NCBI GenBank assembly: GCA_964591795.1
Contig: CAZQEL010000020.1
Coordinates: forward strand, 1 to 15,519
Length of the DNA stretch: 15,519 nt
Reading direction: 5' to 3'
Source of the DNA: an uncultured archaeon
Lineage (GTDB): Archaea > Iainarchaeota > Iainarchaeia > Iainarchaeales > CSSED10-239
This document shows positions 5,813 through 14,545 of this stretch, in pieces. Each line of letters starts with the position of its first letter. Within the stretch, counting starts at the first letter, position 1. The notes under the pieces are model-generated. The model searched no databases, was not told where the DNA came from, and saw only the letters and a program-made list of their open reading frames with translations. The position numbers and the translations under genes were made by a program.

Positions 5813-7948
5813 ATGTCTGTGAAAAAAGAACCCTCAATTAAATTAAAAGTTTTAGAAGCATCAGAAGACTTTATTGGAAAAAATATTGTTAAACTAGATA
5901 TACTTGTAAAACAAAAATTAAATATTATATCTGGAGATATTGTTTTAATAAAAGGAGATGGAATTACTGCTGCTCAAGTATGGCCTGAAAAAAATAAAGC
6001 TGGTGAAGAAAATATTATTAGAATGGACCAATACACTAGAAAAAACGCTAATGTGTCCATTGGAGATTTTGTAGCTATTAAAAAAATAGAACCAGTAATT
6101 GCAAAAGAAGTTATTTTAACTCCACTTAAAGATGTTAATCTTTTATCTGAAAATCAAGATCTTGTTATTAAAAAAAACTTTTTAGGAAGACCATTTGTTC
6201 AAAATAATCATATTATGATTAATGTTTTTGGATCAAGTTATCTTTATGAAGTAACAAGCACATCTCCAAATAAAATTGTTGTATTGTCAGAAGAAACAAA
6301 TTTAATTATTAATAAAAAACCAACATCAAAAAGTAAAATTAATCAAATAATTGGTTATGAAGATGTTGGAGGACTTAAAAAAGAAATTGAAAAAATAAGA
6401 GAAATGGTTGAATTGCCATTTAAGTATCCTGAGTTTTTTGAAAAATTAAATGTTACTCCACCAAAAGGTATATTATTATATGGACCACCAGGAACAGGTA
6501 AAACTTTACTTGCAAAAGCATTATCAAGTGAGCTTAAAGCAAACTTTATTGCGCTTGATGCTCCACAAATAATGGCAAAGTTTGTTGGTGAAGCTGAAGA
6601 AAAATTAAGAAATATTTTTAAAAAAGCACAAAGTAAAACTCCTGCTATTATTTTTATTGATGAAATTGATGCAATTGCTCCAAAAAGAGATGGGTTTATT
6701 TCAGAGGTTGAAAAACGTGTTGTTGCTCAACTTTTAGCATTAATGGATGGTGTATCTTCACGTGGTGATGTTATTGTAATAGGAGCTACAAACAGACAAG
6801 AAGATATTGATTCAGCCTTAAGAAGACCAGGTAGATTTGATAGAGAAATTGATATCGGAGTTCCTAATGAAGAAGGTAGATATGATATCTTGAAAATACA
6901 TACAAGAAATGTGCCTCTTTCAAAGAATGTTAATTTAAAAAAAATGGCACAAATAACACATGGGTTTGTGGGTGCTGATCTTTCTGCTTTTGTGAAAGAA
7001 GCAGCAATCTTTGCAATTAAAGATAAAATATCTGATATTTCTTCTCCTAAAGAAGAAATTCCTCATAAGATATTAGAAGATTTGTCAATTTCAAAAAATG
7101 ATTTTGATAGGGCATTAAAAGTTGTACAACCATCTGCTTTAAGAGAAGTTTTTGTTGAAATTCCTGATGTGGCATATAGTGATCTTGGTGCATTGAAAGA
7201 ACAAAAAGAAGAGCTTTCTGAAATTATAAATCTTACTTTAAATAAAAAAGATATTTTACAAAAAATGAATTTAAAAACTATTAAAAATATTTTATTATAT
7301 GGCCCTCCTGGTACAGGAAAAACCACTTTTGTAAAAGCAACTGCAAAGGAATTTGGAGTTAATTTTATTTATGTAAAAGGACCAGAAATATTTAATAAAT
7401 GGGTAGGAGAATCTGAAAAAACAATTAGATATATTTTTAAAAAAGCAAAAGCAGTATCACCTTGTATTCTTTTCTTTGATGAAATTGATTCGCTTACACA
7501 AAGACGTGATGATTCAATTACTAGCGTAAAAGTTTTAGATCAGTTGTTATCAGAGCTTGATAATTTATCACATAAAGATGTTTTATTTATTTGTGCAACT
7601 AATAGACCTGAATCGATTGACAAATCTTTTTTAAGAAGTGGAAGAATTGATAAATTTATGCAGTTTAAACTTCCTAATTTAAAAGAAAGAAAAGAAATAA
7701 TTAATCTTTTACTTTCTAAAATACCTTCTGAAAAAATAGATGTAAAAGAACTTTCTGAAATTACTAATAATTTTTCATCAGCAGATTTAAATTTATTAAT
7801 TACTGAATCTGCATTTTTAGCATTAAAAGAAAATAAATATAAAGAAACAAAAATTAAAAAAGAACATATTTTAAAAGTATTTTCTAAACTTAAAGCAAAA
7901 GTAGCAACTGAAGGTGGACTTACAGGTATATCTAAATATATTAATTAA
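5813..7948 (+). CDS. cdc48: CDC48/VCP/p97-type AAA+ ATPase (N domain plus D1 and D2)
   Basis: The ORF is 711 aa. The N-terminal double-psi-barrel-like segment reads [21 protein letters not shown]...[19 protein letters not shown]. There are two Walker A motifs (GPPGTGKT twice) and two Walker B motifs (IIFIDEIDA and ILFFDEIDS). Sensor and arginine-finger regions are ATNR...[10 protein letters not shown] and ATNR...RSGRIDKF. Confidence 0.93.
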
Positions 7949-8610
7949 ATAACCCCTGTGAGTAGTAAATAACCACCAAGAGAAAGAATTACTAATATTA
8001 CCCAAATAAATGGATTCCATAAAAAGATTGCCTTTCCATCTAATGGGCCTATTGGTATTAAATTAAAAAATGCAATCCATAAATTAATTAATACACCTAA
8101 TGTAAGAGTAGTTAGTATTATAATATTTTGATAATTACCAAGTATTAGTATTGTATAAAATAAGCCTGCTAAGATTATATTTGTAACCGGTCCTGCTACA
8201 GATACAATTCCATTTTCTTTTCTTGAAAGACTTTTTCCAAAAACATAAACTGCTCCAGGTGCTACAAATACAAATCCAAGTATGAATGCAAAAATTATTG
8301 CAAGAATTAATGGAGTATTCCATTTTATGAACTGCGCTTTTGCTCCAAAATATATTGCTGAATATTTGTGAGCTAGTTCGTGTAAAATAAATGCGGTTCC
8401 AGTTACAATTAAACTTACAATTATAAATGTAATTAAATTAGTTAGTGAAAAATCACTTAGATTTTTTAAATTGAATAAATTATATCCCCCAAGAACTAAT
8501 GCAAAACATACTGATATTCCAAGCCATGCTATAACTATATCTTTTACTTCATTTTTTCTTTTTGGTTGTGTGTGTGTGTTAATATTTTGATAATTTATTT
8601 CGTCACTCAT
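7945..8610 (-). CDS. Site-2 protease family (peptidase M50) integral membrane metalloprotease
   Basis: The ORF is 221 aa and multi-pass hydrophobic. It has the HExxH motif (HELAHK) and the distal NLIPIGPLDG motif typical of M50/S2P. Its 3' end overlaps the cdc48 stop by 4 nt. Confidence 0.85.
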   Translation of the reverse strand: MSDEINYQNINTHTQPKRKNEVKDIVIAWLGISVCFALVLGGYNLFNLKNLSDFSLTNLITFIIVSLIVTGTAFILHELAHKYSAIYFGAKAQFIKWNTPLILAIIFAFILGFVFVAPGAVYVFGKSLSRKENGIVSVAGPVTNIILAGLFYTILILGNYQNIIILTTLTLGVLINLWIAFFNLIPIGPLDGKAIFLWNPFIWVILVILSLGGYLLLTGVI

Positions 8611-8625
8611 AATTAATCACTTTAT

Positions 8626-9369
8626 CTAAACATTTAATGAAGGGAACAATTTTAAAAAGTTGTTAGTTGTTATTTTTTTAAGTTCATCTAAATCTAAATT
8701 ATATTGTTTGCAAAATTCATTATATGATAATTTAATGTCATTTGGTATGATTGTTTCACCTCTAAAAGGTACTGGAAAATCAGTTTCAATAAATAGCTGA
8801 TCTAAATGTTCTTTTGGATTTTGTATTATTGGACTTGCAAATCTTTGGGTTAAATAATAACCTCTATCTAGTGCTGTTGCAATTTCTTTTTCATTTCCTA
8901 CAAACCAATGAAGTATTATTTTAAGATCTTTCCATGCTGTAAGTATTTCTAAAGTTGGTTTTGTTGCATATCTTGTGTGTATTACAACTGGTTTGTTAAT
9001 TTTTTTAGCAATACTTAGTTGTTTTTCAAAAAGTTTTTTTTGTTCTTCTCTTTTCACCTTGTCTTTTGTAATTTTATTATCAAGCCCAATTTCTCCTATT
9101 GCAATTGCATTTGAAAAATCCATGTTATCTAAATCTTCATAGCATTCTTTTAATGTTTTTTCAAGTATTTGATCAGGGTAAAGTCCATAGGCAAAATACA
9201 TATTTTTAAATTTATTTTCTTTAATTTTTTCAAGTCTTTTGTAACTGTTAAAATCAACTGAAGTACTAACAGATATTATATCTTCATTAATATTTTTGAT
9301 TTGGTCTAAAGATAGCTCATCGTAGTGACAATGCATATCAAGATAATACTTATATTCTTTTAGATTCAT
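8626..9369 (-). CDS. tatD: TatD-family metal-dependent hydrolase (DNase-like)
   Basis: The ORF is 247 aa. TatD motifs appear in order: DMHCH, GEIGLD, VIHTR, HWF and ETDFP. Confidence 0.85.
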   Translation of the reverse strand: MNLKEYKYYLDMHCHYDELSLDQIKNINEDIISVSTSVDFNSYKRLEKIKENKFKNMYFAYGLYPDQILEKTLKECYEDLDNMDFSNAIAIGEIGLDNKITKDKVKREEQKKLFEKQLSIAKKINKPVVIHTRYATKPTLEILTAWKDLKIILHWFVGNEKEIATALDRGYYLTQRFASPIIQNPKEHLDQLFIETDFPVPFRGETIIPNDIKLSYNEFCKQYNLDLDELKKITTNNFLKLFPSLNV

Positions 9370-9380
9370 ATAGTATATGT

Positions 9381-9980
9381 ATGGTTCAAATTAATTATAA
9401 AGATTATCTTTTAGATGTACCAAAAGATATTTATTATCCATCTGATGATACTTACTTATTATTGGATGTTTTAAAAAAAGAAATAACTTATGAAAATAAA
9501 TCTTTTTTAGAAGTGGGAACTGGTTCTGGATTAATTACTTTAACAATGTATGATTTATTTGATAAATTAACTGTTGTTGATATTGATGAAAAAGTAATTG
9601 AACATATAACCTTGATTTCTAAAAAGTTAGCATTAACAAAAATAACTATTATAAAGTCTGATTTATTTACAAAAATAGATTCTAAAAAATTTGATGTAAT
9701 TGTTTTTAATCCTCCATACGTACCTTCTGAAAAAATAGAAGTGTATTCTACAGATGGTGGTAAAGATGGTTGTGAAATAATTTTTAAATTTATTAAATCT
9801 TTAAAAAATCATTTGAATAAAAAGGGGGTTTGTTATTTTTTAGTAAGTTCTCACAATAACTTATCCAAAGTTTATAACGAAATATTAAAAAACAAGTTAA
9901 GTTATAAGATATTAATAGAGAAGAATATCTTTTTTGAAAAATTAATTATATTAAAAATAAGTGATGATCTATGCCTATAA
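9381..9980 (+). CDS. HemK-related / Mtq2-like class I SAM-dependent methyltransferase; its likely substrate is the release factor glutamine
   Basis: The ORF is 199 aa. It has YYPSDDTYLL, the SAM-binding loop LEVGTGSGL, the catalytic FNPPYVP (NPPY) motif and the GGKDG motif, as in the small archaeal hemK-related family. Confidence 0.8.
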   Translation: MVQINYKDYLLDVPKDIYYPSDDTYLLLDVLKKEITYENKSFLEVGTGSGLITLTMYDLFDKLTVVDIDEKVIEHITLISKKLALTKITIIKSDLFTKIDSKKFDVIVFNPPYVPSEKIEVYSTDGGKDGCEIIFKFIKSLKNHLNKKGVCYFLVSSHNNLSKVYNEILKNKLSYKILIEKNIFFEKLIILKISDDLCL

Positions 9981-11161: not shown

Positions 11162-12037
11162 ATGGCTCCAAAAAAGAAAGAAAAATTAAGTTTTGAAGAA
11201 GAACTTTATAGATTGTTTCTACCTTTAACTAGAAACATACGTTCTAATGAATTTGACGAAACTTTACAACAAGCAGATTTTACTGAAGATATAGATATTT
11301 ATCTTTCTAAAAATTTCTTTTTTGCTGGTTTTATACTAATAATGACTTTATTAGTTGGATTTATAATGTCTAATTTTGTACCTGATTTAGTTAGTTTACA
11401 ATTAGTAATTATTTTAGCATTATCAGTTTTTATTTGTTTTATTGGTTATACAATGGTAAATCCTTATTTAGTAATAGGTACTAAAAATTCAAGTATTAGA
11501 GATGCTCTTCCATTAGCAATTATTGGTATGTCTAGTGTTGCTGAATCTGGTGCACCACCAATTGCAATTTTTTCCACAAAAACAATAAAGGATAAAAGTC
11601 AATATCTTGATAAAGAATTATCAAAAATACTTTATTATGTAAATCATTTAGGTATTTCTCTTCTTGAAGCAATTGATATTACTGCAAGAAAAACACCTTC
11701 CTATGAATTAAAAAAATTTTTACTTGATTTGAAATCAAATATTGAAGCAGGTGGATCCTTACCTGAGTTTATGAAAAAGAAAGCTGAGCACGCTAGATTT
11801 CAATATAATTTAATTTTAAATAATCAAAATCAAAAGGCAGAAACTTTTGGTGATATTTATTCTGCAATTGTTGTTGCAGGTCCATTATTTTTATTTTCTG
11901 GTATCATGCTTTTAGGTATGGTTGGTGGTGGTATTGCTGGATTAAGTATAGCCACAGTACTTCAAATAGGTGTGTTTTTATTAGTGCCAATTATTAATAT
12001 TGCATTTATTGCAGTATTAAATTTAGTGAGTAGTTGA
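11162..12037 (+). CDS. Type IV pilus/archaellum-type platform membrane protein with a single T2SSF domain (TadB/TadC- or half-FlaJ-like), copy 1
   Basis: The ORF is 291 aa. Two N-terminal TM helices are followed by a cytoplasmic T2SSF-like helical domain (PLAIIGMSSVAESGAPPIAIF...GISLLEAIDITARKTPSYELKKFLLDLKSNIEAGGSLPEFM). C-terminal TM helices follow. Confidence 0.8.
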   Translation: MAPKKKEKLSFEEELYRLFLPLTRNIRSNEFDETLQQADFTEDIDIYLSKNFFFAGFILIMTLLVGFIMSNFVPDLVSLQLVIILALSVFICFIGYTMVNPYLVIGTKNSSIRDALPLAIIGMSSVAESGAPPIAIFSTKTIKDKSQYLDKELSKILYYVNHLGISLLEAIDITARKTPSYELKKFLLDLKSNIEAGGSLPEFMKKKAEHARFQYNLILNNQNQKAETFGDIYSAIVVAGPLFLFSGIMLLGMVGGGIAGLSIATVLQIGVFLLVPIINIAFIAVLNLVSS

Positions 12038-12043
12038 TGTTAA

Positions 12044-12898
12044 ATGAATTTTTTAAAAGAATTTGGAATTAATTTATCTGAAAAACAGAAATTTTTTGTT
12101 GATTATATTATTTATGGGTTAATTGGTTCAATTATTTTTGTAGTTCTTTTAATTAATACAAAATATTTAGTTTTTGCAATTTTTCCAATTTTAGTTGCTG
12201 TTGGTGTTGCTGCAAAAATCTATACTGCAAAAATTAAATCCTATGAAAGAAATTTATATGTGTTTTTAGATGATTTAAGAGATCTTTTACAAGGTGGTAT
12301 GAATATTGTTACTGCAGTAGAAGTAGCTTCAAGACACGATTATGGTCATTTAAATGTTCCAATAAAAAGGATAGCTGCACAAATTAAAATTGGAGTTTCT
12401 TTTGATGTTGCCTTAAATGATGTTTTTGGGCAAATTGATAGTTCGGTATTTAGACAAGTTACTCAAATTATTTCAGAAACTACAAAAGTAGGTGGTAATA
12501 TTATTAAAATATTTACCTCTATTTCAGATTATGTAAAAACAATTAATGATATGGTTGAAGAAAGAAAATCAAAAACATTTTCAACAGTTTTTTCAAGTTA
12601 TTTTATGTTCTTTGTTTTTATTGGAATTATTTTAATAATACAAATTGTTTTCTTACCAATGCTTAGTGCTAACTCTATGTCATTAAGTGGAGATACTGGT
12701 GGAGCTACATCTTCTTCTATGACAAATGTAGATTTTAATAAATATTTTTTATATTTAATTGTTATACAAGGTTTGTTTGCTGGTCCAACAATTGGTTTAA
12801 TTTCTGAAAATAATTTTATTGCAGGAATAAGGCATTCAATTATTCTTGTAGGTATTTCAGTACCTTTATATGTTGCAATATCTGCAATATTTTTGTAG
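12044..12898 (+). CDS. Type IV pilus/archaellum-type platform membrane protein with a single T2SSF domain, copy 2
   Basis: The ORF is 284 aa. Its T2SSF-like core reads FLDDLRDLLQGGMNIVTAVEVASRHDYGHLNVPIKRIAAQIKIGVSFDVALNDVFGQIDSSVFRQVTQIISETTKVGGNIIKIF and is flanked by TM helices. It starts 6 nt after copy 1. Confidence 0.8.
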   Translation: MNFLKEFGINLSEKQKFFVDYIIYGLIGSIIFVVLLINTKYLVFAIFPILVAVGVAAKIYTAKIKSYERNLYVFLDDLRDLLQGGMNIVTAVEVASRHDYGHLNVPIKRIAAQIKIGVSFDVALNDVFGQIDSSVFRQVTQIISETTKVGGNIIKIFTSISDYVKTINDMVEERKSKTFSTVFSSYFMFFVFIGIILIIQIVFLPMLSANSMSLSGDTGGATSSSMTNVDFNKYFLYLIVIQGLFAGPTIGLISENNFIAGIRHSIILVGISVPLYVAISAIFL

Positions 12899-13020
12899 CC
12901 GTAATTAATTTTGATTTTGGTTATTAAAGAAGATAGCTTTATATATGTTATAGTTTATATATTATTATAATTTATAAGTTATATATATTTGTGTGAATAT
13001 ACAGTTAAATAAGAAAAGAT

Positions 13021-13482
13021 ATGATTATTAAAAAAGCATTATCTCCATTAATTGCAACAATTCTTTTAGTTGCGGTTGCTTTGTCACTTGCTGGAATTTT
13101 ATATTCTTGGTCGTCACAAAATTTTAAAGATACAACCACAAGTGTTTCTGACACTTCAGCTGAATGGATTGATTGTAGTAATGTAAATATATATATAGAC
13201 TCAGGTTGTTCTTACAGTACAATTGACGGGTTTGATGGACTTATAATATTTGACAGATCAACAATTACGGTTGATCAAAACATTGTTTTAACTACTATTG
13301 CTAACGATAATACTATTGCAAGTACTGAATTAGAACCAAATTTTATTGGAAATGCAATGTCTTTAGATTCAATAGCAAATGCAGTTCCTACATTTATTGG
13401 TCTTGAAAAACCTTTAAAGAGAGTTCAAGTACATGTAGAAAATTGTCCTGACAGAGTATCTTACATTTCAAAATGTAATTAA
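13021..13482 (+). CDS. Archaeal type IV pilin-like protein (class III signal peptide, Pilin_N-type), paralogue 1
   Basis: The ORF is 153 aa. The N-terminus is MIIKKA|LSPLIATILLVAVALSLAGILYSW: a short basic leader, a small residue, then the SP[LI]IAT hydrophobic helix typical of archaeal pilins. There are four Cys (C52, C63, C142, C152). Confidence 0.8.
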   Translation: MIIKKALSPLIATILLVAVALSLAGILYSWSSQNFKDTTTSVSDTSAEWIDCSNVNIYIDSGCSYSTIDGFDGLIIFDRSTITVDQNIVLTTIANDNTIASTELEPNFIGNAMSLDSIANAVPTFIGLEKPLKRVQVHVENCPDRVSYISKCN

Positions 13483-13521
13483 ACTTAAAACAAAAATAAT
13501 AATAAAAAATATAAAAATATA

Positions 13522-13528
13522 AGGTGAT
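13522..13528 (+). promoter_or_regulatory. Shine-Dalgarno-like ribosome binding site for pilin paralogue 2
   Basis: AGGTGAT lies 5 nt upstream of the ATG at 13534 and is complementary to the conserved 16S 3' end (AUCACCU). It is the strongest SD-like match I see in front of any of the three pilin genes. Confidence 0.5.
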
Positions 13529-13533
13529 ATAAA

Positions 13534-14013
13534 ATGAATATGAAAAAAGCAATTTCTCCATTAATTGCGACAATTTTATTAATTGTTGTTGCGGTTGCAT
13601 TAATTGCAATTGTAATTGCATGGGGCAAATCTTTCACAACAGATAGTCTTTCAGATGCAACTGGTGTTGTAGACACAAGTTGTATGGGTGCAGCAATTCA
13701 AATTTCAGGTTGTACTATTAACGATTCAAATAAAATGATTTTCTACGTACAAAACACAGGTAATATTACTTTACCTACCGGAGATGATATTTTAATTAAT
13801 ATTACAAATGTTTCTGACGGAAATGCAACTTTAAATTTATCAACAGCAACAACTGAAACTACATGGACTGGAATTACAGCTGGACAAACTGCATTATTCA
13901 CACTTGATGATGCTAATTTACCAGGTGCAGTAACTGCTCAATATAACTTAAAATTAATATCAAGTTATTGTCCTTCAGATGCTATTGCAGAATTTAAAAA
14001 ATGTGGTCAATAA
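13534..14013 (+). CDS. Archaeal type IV pilin-like protein, paralogue 2 (candidate major, glycosylated subunit)
   Basis: The ORF is 159 aa. The N-terminus is MNMKKA|ISPLIATILLIVVAVALIAIVIAW. There are four Cys (C50, C60, C146, C157) and six N-x-S/T sequons (N63, N77, N89, N92, N97, N101). It has a strong SD upstream and a terminator hairpin downstream. Confidence 0.82.
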   Translation: MNMKKAISPLIATILLIVVAVALIAIVIAWGKSFTTDSLSDATGVVDTSCMGAAIQISGCTINDSNKMIFYVQNTGNITLPTGDDILINITNVSDGNATLNLSTATTETTWTGITAGQTALFTLDDANLPGAVTAQYNLKLISSYCPSDAIAEFKKCGQ

Positions 14014-14034
14014 ATACAACTTTAAAAATAATGT

Positions 14035-14075
14035 AGAAATCTTTTTTTAATAAAAAGATTTCTTATTTATTTTTT
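14035..14075 (+). terminator. Perfect 12-bp hairpin followed by a T-run, downstream of pilin paralogue 2
   Basis: agaaatcttttt (14035..14046), loop ttaat, then aaaaagatttct (14052..14063), followed by tatttatttttt with six consecutive T at 14070..14075. Confidence 0.55.
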
Positions 14076-14101
14076 AATTATAATTTTTATACTGAAATGA
14101 T

Positions 14102-14545
14102 ATGAGAAAAGCAATAAGCCCAATTATAGCAACTATTCTTTTAATTGTAGTTTCACTAGCACTTATTTCTATAATGTTGTCTTGGGGTTCTGAATTTGTT
14201 TCTAAAAACACAGCCGCAGCAGATAATACTGTTGATGCAGATTGTGTTGGCTCATATGTGAATTTTATTTCTTGTGTTTATGACATTAGTGAAGAAACAG
14301 TTACTGTTAATATTATTAATACAGGAAAAACTGATTTCAAGCAAGATCAAAATTTTAATGTGTCAATAATTGATAAAGATAAACAGGTTGATTTTTCACA
14401 TACTAATGTTTTAGATTCAAATGCTTTGGTAATAGGAGAATCAGATTACTTTGTAATAACAGATTATAATGGACCTAGTCCAATTACTGTGCAATTAAGA
14501 AATATGTATTGCCCATTAAACTACTGGCAAACTAAGTGTTCTTAA
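14102..14545 (+). CDS. Archaeal type IV pilin-like protein, paralogue 3
   Basis: The ORF is 147 aa. The N-terminus is MRKA|ISPIIATILLIVVSLALISIMLSW. There are four Cys (C48, C58, C137, C146) and one N-x-S/T sequon (N86). Confidence 0.8.
   Translation: MRKAISPIIATILLIVVSLALISIMLSWGSEFVSKNTAAADNTVDADCVGSYVNFISCVYDISEETVTVNIINTGKTDFKQDQNFNVSIIDKDKQVDFSHTNVLDSNALVIGESDYFVITDYNGPSPITVQLRNMYCPLNYWQTKCS

Follow-up and report, generated by a model that had tools for sequence, protein, structure and literature searches.

Platform and pilin genes of a likely split type IV filament machine in a Forterrea-like Iainarchaeote

We analyzed a 15,519-nucleotide stretch of archaeal DNA (positions 1 to 15,519 of contig CAZQEL010000020.1, assembly GCA_964591795.1; hereafter the window), and in particular a locus of five co-directional open reading frames (ORFs) on its plus strand at 11162-14545, between the genes for a DRG-type GTPase and endA. 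Two of the five encode platform proteins and three encode pilins. The locus is likely the platform and pilin half of a single archaeal type IV filament machine, the genes of which are split between distant chromosomal sites in Forterrea-like Iainarchaeota. The original prediction, made by a model from the sequence alone, had described a type IV pilus-like locus here, and its five ORFs fall at exactly the positions it gave. Its assignment to a type IV filament module was borne out by T2SSF and class III pilin profile matches and by the structural match of an AlphaFold2 (AF2) platform model. The possibility it raised of an unusual minimal arrangement fared less well, since the ATPase of relatives is accompanied by a conserved set of four accessory genes, and additional pilin-like genes occur close by. 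The machine is a conventional one, set apart by a lineage-specific gene layout, and does not represent a new type.

By analogy with well-established type IV filament systems, the parts would be expected to work together as follows. The three prepilins would be inserted into the membrane and cleaved by an A24-family peptidase, encoded elsewhere, after the K-(A/G) of a KKA↓(L/I)SP motif (the arrow marks the cleavage site). The two single-domain T2SSF proteins would form a TadB/TadC-like heterodimeric platform, and a hexameric T2SSE ATPase, its gene presumably some 230 kb distant as in a relative and grouped with those of four small accessory proteins, would dock on the platform's cytoplasmic domains. 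This ATPase would pull pilins out of the membrane and power their polymerization via the N-terminal hydrophobic helices, with the globular, beta-rich pilin domains forming the filament surface. A filament is presumably assembled, and it may serve in adhesion or host contact.

Surface filaments are leading candidates for host contact or DNA scavenging in DPANN archaea, and it is therefore useful to know which genes make up such a machine. The present analysis provides a concrete parts list for one, and delineates a widespread family of archaeal pilins of about 150 amino acids with four cysteines. The dispersal of the Forterrea-like system across distant loci also means that detection schemes based on co-localization will miss or misclassify systems of this kind. 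In a preprint survey of archaeal filaments, the MacSyFinder ‘ordered replicon’ models need a co-localized ATPase, platform and peptidase, and DPANN genomes were screened separately in ‘unordered’ mode, an implicit acknowledgment that DPANN filament genes are scattered (10.64898/2026.04.22.720090).

The platform pair and the pilins

The first two genes of the locus encode platform half 1 (11162-12037, plus strand; 291 amino acids) and platform half 2 (12044-12898, plus strand; 284 amino acids), and are separated by a gap of 6 bp. Their predicted T2SSF assignment was upheld, both proteins scoring above the gathering score of the Pfam T2SSF model (PF00482), with 38.6 bits for half 1 and 63.0 bits for half 2 against a cut-off of 25.2. 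Each protein has a single T2SSF domain, which in half 1 spans residues 123-245 and is flanked by two predicted pairs of transmembrane helices, and in half 2 spans residues 74-199 and is likewise accompanied by transmembrane helices. Alignments to NCBIfam ArlJ models cover model positions 21-243 of 555 for half 1 (E 4e-20) and 186-415 of 465 for half 2 (E 2.2e-16). Half 1 is equivalent to the N-terminal half of a FlaJ/PilC protein and is TadB/EpdJ-like; half 2 is equivalent to the C-terminal half and is TadC/EpdK-like. The two share only 14% identity, and so are not products of a recent duplication. They are long-diverged halves of a platform of the PilC/FlaJ type, held in separate genes and comparable to TadB/TadC and EpdJ/EpdK. 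The halves are separate genes in gene-called relatives too, and tblastn places both, in the same order, in every fetched locus long enough to contain them.

Structural comparison is consistent with this assignment. A search of PDB sequences with platform half 2 returned nothing. In an AF2 model of the same protein (pLDDT 72), the cytoplasmic domain resembles those of EpsF (3C1Q), PilC (2WHN), OutF (5NBG) and TcpE (4HHX), with TM-scores on the target of 0.63-0.80 and match probabilities of 0.98-1.00.

Downstream lie pilin 1 (13021-13482; 153 amino acids), pilin 2 (13534-14013; 159 amino acids) and pilin 3 (14102-14545; 147 amino acids), all on the plus strand. All three pass TIGR02537, the NCBIfam model of the archaellin/type IV pilin N-terminal domain, at 35.9, 27.1 and 21.7 bits respectively against a cut-off of 20. 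The narrower assignment to Pfam Pilin_N that had been made from the sequence is weaker, as pilins 1 and 2 score 14.4 and 11.9 bits, under the cut-off of that model, and pilin 3 has no match, but this broader class III model accommodates the whole set. None of the window pilins matches the Pfam Arch_flagellin model. Pilin 1 is weakly similar to UpsA, and pilin 3 is UpsA-like (E 3.7e-7). A PDB sequence search with pilin 2 recovered archaeal pilins only, none of them significant.

The class III signal peptides read MIIKKA↓LSPLIATILL in pilin 1, MNMKKA↓ISPLIATILL in pilin 2 and MRKA↓ISPIIATILL in pilin 3. They share the motif K-A↓(L/I)SP(L/I)IATILL, which is also kept in orthologues. Four cysteines stand at equivalent positions in all three proteins (residues 52, 63, 142 and 152 of pilin 1; 50, 60, 146 and 157 of pilin 2; 48, 58, 137 and 146 of pilin 3) and are likewise kept in orthologues, so the description of these proteins as paralogous, cysteine-bearing pilins holds. 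The accompanying claim that they are differentially decorated is weaker. There are no N-X-S/T sequons in pilin 1, six in pilin 2 and one in pilin 3, in agreement with that claim, but across orthologues these counts vary inconsistently. An AF2 model of pilin 2, built from an alignment of the three paralogues and of low confidence (pLDDT 53.6), has an N-terminal helix at residues 9-36 followed by about seven beta strands.

An exhaustive profile search with the pilins gave 1,656 cluster representatives, 49 of them at E <= 1e-10 and mostly aligned over most of their length. Among the 110 matches of 130-185 amino acids, 76 carry the four-cysteine signature (including 45 of the first 50), in which two cysteines about 10 residues apart lie just after the transmembrane helix and another two, also about 10 residues apart, lie at the extreme C-terminus. 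The window pilins belong to a sizeable and widespread archaeal family of proteins of about 150 amino acids with four conserved cysteines (representatives P0236-P0385). Variants with two cysteines retain the first and third, implying that the first pairs with the third and the second with the fourth, and each pilin domain is probably stapled by two disulfides arranged in this way (C1-C3 and C2-C4). Such disulfides would be of note for anaerobic subsurface organisms.

Locus conservation and the motor ATPase in relatives

The closest relatives of the window are Iainarchaeota (Diapherotrites, DPANN), and the window comes from a tiny Forterrea-like Iainarchaeote with a G+C content of about 25%. Platform half 2 is 84% identical to its counterpart in the complete genome of Candidatus Forterrea multitransposorum (CP045477.1) and 86% identical to that on a 671-kb contig (locus L005). 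The platform loci that we fetched (L001-L010, plus L021-L035 from a metagenome scan) include several duplicate assemblies and some short fragments. In every one that is long enough, the order is DRG, platform half 1, platform half 2 and three or four pilins, followed by convergent endA and DUF357 genes, and this order extends over platform identities of 100% down to 55%. Comparison across relatives, which the original prediction had proposed as a check, thus finds the same arrangement throughout, with intact genes.

All five genes are under purifying selection. Measured against L005, at a dS near 1 and thus close to saturation, dN/dS is 0.11 for platform half 1 (82% identical to its L005 orthologue), 0.08 for platform half 2, and 0.15, 0.20 and 0.19 for pilins 1 to 3. 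The pilins diverge faster than the platform genes, and the best conserved of them, pilin 1, is 78%, 58% and 44% identical to its orthologues in L005, L009 and L010. Purifying selection together with a gene order kept across the clade argues that the locus is functional and that its odd context is ancient within the clade.

What the locus does not contain is a motor. Pfam and NCBIfam scans of all sizeable ORFs in the 15.5-kb window yielded neither a T2SSE ATPase nor an A24 peptidase, and tblastn with the relatives' pilus ATPase found no match in the window, in agreement with the predicted lack of both enzymes. The same tblastn search returned nothing from the fetched flanks (<=10 kb) of any related platform locus.

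The platform-family profile allowed us to reach more distant relatives in which the missing gene is present. In a Diapherotrites metagenome-assembled genome (locus L012, GCA_026413945.1; 42% platform identity), a single co-directional cluster encodes two four-cysteine pilins, a 130-amino-acid protein, a 676-amino-acid fn3/Big adhesin-like protein, four small accessory proteins, a 750-amino-acid T2SSE ATPase and two T2SSF proteins in succession. A cluster in a Woesearchaeota genome (L013, GCA_038873495.1) has a similar order. The premise of the original prediction that archaeal platform genes usually adjoin their ATPase is supported by both loci and by published surveys (PMC4858521; 10.64898/2026.04.22.720090), in the first of which the ATPase and tadC form the core linked pair of archaeal loci.

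A search with the L012 ATPase gave 1081 matches, and the best 120 of them include three proteins (P0187, P0193 and P0156) that share about 51% identity with the query across the conserved core. The longest contigs associated with them are 839,632 bp for P0187, the same size as the complete Forterrea genome CP045477.1; 671,531 bp for P0193, the same size as the contig that holds platform locus L005; and 977,747 bp for P0156, the same size as that for platform match P0019. The ATPase locus is itself conserved in these relatives. It opens with genes for glycosyltransferases, a flippase and a large protein that is either DUF2341 or unannotated, continues with an opposite-strand Sec61-beta gene and four small genes encoding about 325, 120, 155 and 115 amino acids, and then reaches the ATPase. 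No T2SSF gene lies within +/-10 kb of it. On the 687,569-bp JGI contig Ga0209340_1000002, the platform gene lies at about 270,822-271,685 and the ATPase gene at about 502,365-504,587 on the same strand, which from these ranges places them roughly 231 kb apart. The predicted dependence on factors encoded elsewhere is therefore substantiated for the motor, as the closest relatives carry an orthologous T2SSE gene, at this distance on the one contig.

The two Forterrea-type loci correspond to the single L012 operon gene by gene. In BLAST comparisons the pilins are 33-37% identical to those of L012, with the same four-cysteine pattern; the platform halves are 35% (half 1, against the ATPase-adjacent gene) and 42% identical; the ATPase is 46-51% identical; and one accessory protein matches at E 2e-5. 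This correspondence argues that an ancestral operon was split, and on the simplest reading of the gene orders the break fell, in the Forterrea-like clade, between the genes for the ATPase and platform half 1.

The ATPases of the relatives range from 671 to 750 amino acids, and their conserved core begins at about residue 190-245 when they are compared with 2OAP, FlaI and CpaF. Their best PDB matches are Archaeoglobus fulgidus GspE2 (2OAP, 314 bits), FlaI (224 bits) and CpaF (137 bits). Against the FlaI equivalog model the score is 323 bits, below the cut-off of 550, and the protein is therefore not an archaellum motor. It falls among the generic secretion ATPases of archaea and has a long extension at its N-terminus; related Diapherotrites ATPases are annotated with PF23989 (PilB3_C), and NCBI names the Forterrea protein ‘Flp pilus assembly complex ATPase component’. 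The N-terminal extension varies in length among close relatives (P0187, P0193, P0156 and L012). A repeat-containing region prone to mis-assembly has been described inside a ‘secretion-related ATPase’ of Forterrea (PMC5905446, Fig. 1F legend), which may be this pilus ATPase gene. The accessible portion of the Forterrea paper does not discuss pili (PMC5905446).

Several points weigh against the proposal of one machine split between distant sites. The exact platform protein of the window is confined to JGI contigs of <=5.7 kb, and the distant ATPase of the window's own genome would be an extrapolation from relatives at 66-86% identity. As the ATPase matches listed were the best 120 of 1081, additional T2SSE paralogues are possible, and with them a different cognate motor. 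Confidence in the modeled pilin structure is low, and about 40 kb of context per relative yielded no A24 prepilin peptidase.

That last absence was approached from several directions. The platform and ATPase loci of relatives have no A24 peptidase gene within +/-10 kb, where unannotated neighbors were searched with Pfam and NCBIfam and ORFs of at least 120 amino acids from eight loci were screened for polytopic proteins. Genes for such peptidases often lie away from pilus loci (PMC4858521), and in other DPANN they are annotated on separate contigs (PMC7414124 supplement). The strictly conserved K-(A/G)↓(L/I)SP site suggests that an A24-type enzyme presumably exists. Two candidates were rejected. 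The M50 protein of the window (7945-8610) is a site-2-type HExxH metalloprotease in what is a housekeeping synteny block in relatives, and a polytopic protein of 322-342 amino acids near the ATPase lacks a GxGD motif and matches nothing in Pfam, NCBIfam or PDB profiles. The latter is a conserved minus-strand gene about 1.3 kb downstream of the ATPase (L016:13349-14323; L014:13361-14329; L018:13533-14561), its product having six to seven predicted transmembrane segments and a loop of about 100 amino acids. It may be an uncharacterized accessory component.

The lack of an ATPase or A24 peptidase within +/-10 kb in any clade member could also be explained if the locus were a self-sufficient minimal apparatus with no dedicated T2SSE, or a decaying, nonfunctional remnant. 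Either is highly improbable. The same genomes retain an orthologous ATPase, the five genes are intact, in the same order at 55-100% identity and under purifying selection, and the cleavage motif and four cysteines are conserved. We know of no type IV filament that is independent of an ATPase.

Relation to known filament systems and possible functions

The split machine shares features with several described systems while matching none of them. One of these is archaeal System 1, the Epd pilus of Methanococcus maripaludis, with its EpdJ and EpdK platform, EpdL ATPase and EppA peptidase (PMC4858521; 10.64898/2026.04.22.720090). Like System 1, the locus has a platform of two single-T2SSF genes and several pilins, and relatives encode Epd/DUF361-type proteins, including a short pilin of 62 amino acids, 2-6 kb away. 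Two-gene platforms define System 1, which has been reported in DPANN, and also occur in some DPANN 4A loci (10.64898/2026.04.22.720090), and many clade 2 loci have two tadC genes (Makarova et al. 2016, PMC4858521). Unlike in System 1, the ATPase is not at the platform locus (none in flanks of <=10 kb, and some 231 kb away in one relative), no EppA-like peptidase was found at the loci examined, and the window pilins are not Epd-type, but have Pilin_N/PilA-like N-termini (K-A/G↓(L/I)SPxIATILL) and a globular four-cysteine domain.

The pilin N-termini, which are PilA/DUF1628-like, instead recall System 2, the haloarchaeal PilB3/PilC3 system with PilA pilins, as does the ATPase of relatives, in which the core begins at about residue 190 of 675. 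A long N-terminal ATPase extension is a System 2 trait, and the System 2 platform is a single gene (10.64898/2026.04.22.720090). L012 adds a further likeness in its large adhesin-like protein and pilin-like proteins that lack a canonical signal. The differences are that the platform here consists of two genes, that Pfam Pilin_N is below threshold, and that the fetched loci showed no ATPase of the MinD/FleN type.

A split TadB/TadC-type platform is also found in bacterial Tad/Flp pili, and the nearest non-archaeal match to platform half 2 is a Firmicute locus (L011) with the order TadZ-TadA-TadB-TadC, at 28% identity. The window nevertheless has no TadZ, secretin or TadE/F, and TadZ, secretin and Flp-type pilins are absent from relatives and occur only in L011. 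The window pilins are globular and not Flp-like, and the ATPase of relatives is closer to GspE2 and FlaI than to CpaF. An archaellum does not fit either, with no FlaH/F/G-type genes in the window or in relatives' loci, an ATPase below the FlaI cut-off, and no Arch_flagellin match among the window pilins.

A further counterpart is the canonical operon of Diapherotrites and Woesearchaeota (L012 and L013), which has orthologous four-cysteine pilins, platform halves, ATPase and at least one accessory gene. In those operons, however, the ATPase is directly upstream of the platform pair, while the Forterrea-type platform and pilin half sits between DRG and endA. This separation of ATPase and platform differs from all described loci. 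In L013, the first platform gene (8075-9964, plus strand) encodes 629 amino acids, with an N-terminal extension of about 360 amino acids before the T2SSF half, and an ORF of 83 amino acids lies between it and the ATPase.

Beyond the 3' end corresponding to that of the window, relatives have a series of small proteins bearing class III signals of Epd/DUF361 type (K-G/A↓Q-x-S-x-E), located 2-6 kb downstream of the platform and pilin locus in L005 and L009. The genes are on the minus strand (L005:13985-15660 and 17785-18915; L009:14006-15706 and 17979-19105; L025:17979-19096) and are interleaved with Dph5-like, Cdc6 and PCNA genes. After Cdc6 and PCNA come a short pilin of 62 amino acids, a PF04021 protein of 131-143 amino acids and a polytopic HExxH membrane protein of 171-172 amino acids. 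Among the genes of L005 and L009, PF04021 scores of 26.9 and 24.4 bits are above the cut-off of 23.7; the short pilin, which has no globular domain, matches PF04021 at 26.9 bits and Flp1_like weakly. The polytopic protein (L005:17785-18303; L009:17979-18494; L025:17979-18491; minus strand) is conserved, adjoins the short Epd-type pilin genes, has a HELxH motif, and weakly matches the Peptidase_M50B and DUF3267 zincin models. Should these genomes lack an A24 peptidase, it would be a candidate protease for pilin processing or regulation. The placement of these genes among housekeeping genes suggests that the pilus genes of the clade are scattered, and they possibly belong to a second filament type.

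These downstream genes bear on how many filaments one motor might serve. The original prediction had suggested that the locus could be one of several platform and pilin modules sharing a single motor ATPase, and a class III gene set so close by does raise the prospect of one motor serving more than one set of pilins. We nevertheless regard several such modules as quite improbable. The platform profile search gave a single platform half 2 protein per long contig, with no second platform pair on the same contigs, and the ATPase locus of relatives has no platform genes of its own, which fits one platform pair and one motor. The search was insensitive, missing even platform half 1, and a divergent second platform could thus have escaped it. 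An unlikely variant, which we offer as speculation, is that the one distant motor and the one split platform serve both the globular four-cysteine pilins and the Epd/Flp-like short pilins, the latter paired with the conserved HExxH membrane protein, in genomes of about 0.7-1 Mb. The product would be either two filament types or a single composite filament, used to contact hosts, to scavenge DNA, or both. Scattering of the genes among invariant housekeeping neighbors (DRG, endA, Cdc6 and PCNA) would then represent regulatory coupling to core functions rather than random rearrangement.

As for function, the same parts could make a filament that is primarily a device for the uptake of DNA or nutrients, feeding nucleotide scavenging, rather than one for adhesion or host contact. 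DNA import by DPANN pili for nucleoside catabolism has been proposed (PMC7414124), the lifestyle predicted for Forterrea centers on nucleotide metabolism and RuBisCO (PMC5905446), and platform half 2 has a sub-threshold match to ComGB (E 4e-9). We hold such a primary role to be fairly unlikely. The ComGB score is far under the cut-off (36 versus 240 bits), and none of the fetched loci showed a channel of the ComEC/ComEA type or a pilin that binds DNA. The 676-amino-acid fn3/Big protein of the L012 operon and the large DUF2341 protein at the ATPase locus instead point to adhesion. Upstream of the ATPase locus (L018:1-7290; L014:4304-5758, minus strand) are GT2 and GT4 glycosyltransferases, a Polysacc_synt flippase and a DUF2341 protein of 655 amino acids. 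Glycosyltransferases and a flippase beside a DUF2341 protein are compatible with an adhesin-like partner and with glycosylation of proteins at the cell surface, sequon-rich pilin 2 among them.

Expression signals and neighboring genes

Pilin 2 is set apart from its neighbors by signals on either side. A Shine-Dalgarno-like GGTGAT, read from the sequence at 13523-13528 (plus strand), lies 5 nt upstream of its start codon, and L005 has an identical AAGGUGAU(AUAAA)AUG before pilin 2. Directly 3' of the gene, at 14035-14075 on the plus strand, is a terminator-like element (RNA fold -15.7 kcal/mol, z = -3.2) made up of a perfect 12-bp hairpin, in which 14035-14046 pairs with 14052-14063, and a T-rich run. 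A hairpin and U-run occur at the same position in L005 (11936-12032, z -1.9) and L009 (11932-12010, z -3.8), though not after pilin 2 in L010, and the stem sequence differs wholly between relatives while its position is kept. This suggests that a transcript ends after pilin 2. As it has a Shine-Dalgarno motif to itself and is followed by a conserved hairpin resembling a terminator, pilin 2 is the most plausible candidate for the abundant subunit; it is also a candidate for a glycosylated pilin. A scan of bacterial-type promoters and terminators, a method unsuited to archaeal promoters, gave no more than shuffled controls.

The remainder of the window, which has a G+C content of about 21-30% over its 15.5 kb, is occupied largely by housekeeping genes, encoding PriL, iPGM, Pelota, S17e, RpoK, a helix-turn-helix protein, an NFACT protein and CDC48. 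Others encode an M50 metalloprotease, a TatD protein, a methyltransferase and the DRG-type GTPase. The sole ATPase among the scanned ORFs is the CDC48 AAA+ protein, and the sole peptidase is the site-2-type M50 metalloprotease. Both boundaries of the filament locus were correctly predicted: the upstream DRG-like P-loop protein has MMR_HSR1 and TGS domains, and profile scans confirmed endA as the convergent gene downstream of the pilins, where it and a DUF357 protein are encoded on the opposite strand at the 3' end of the window. PADLOC defense-system models had zero matches. Packing is very tight, with convergent stop-codon overlaps of 4 nt between CDC48 and the M50 peptidase (7945-7948) and between pilin 3 and endA (14542-14545).

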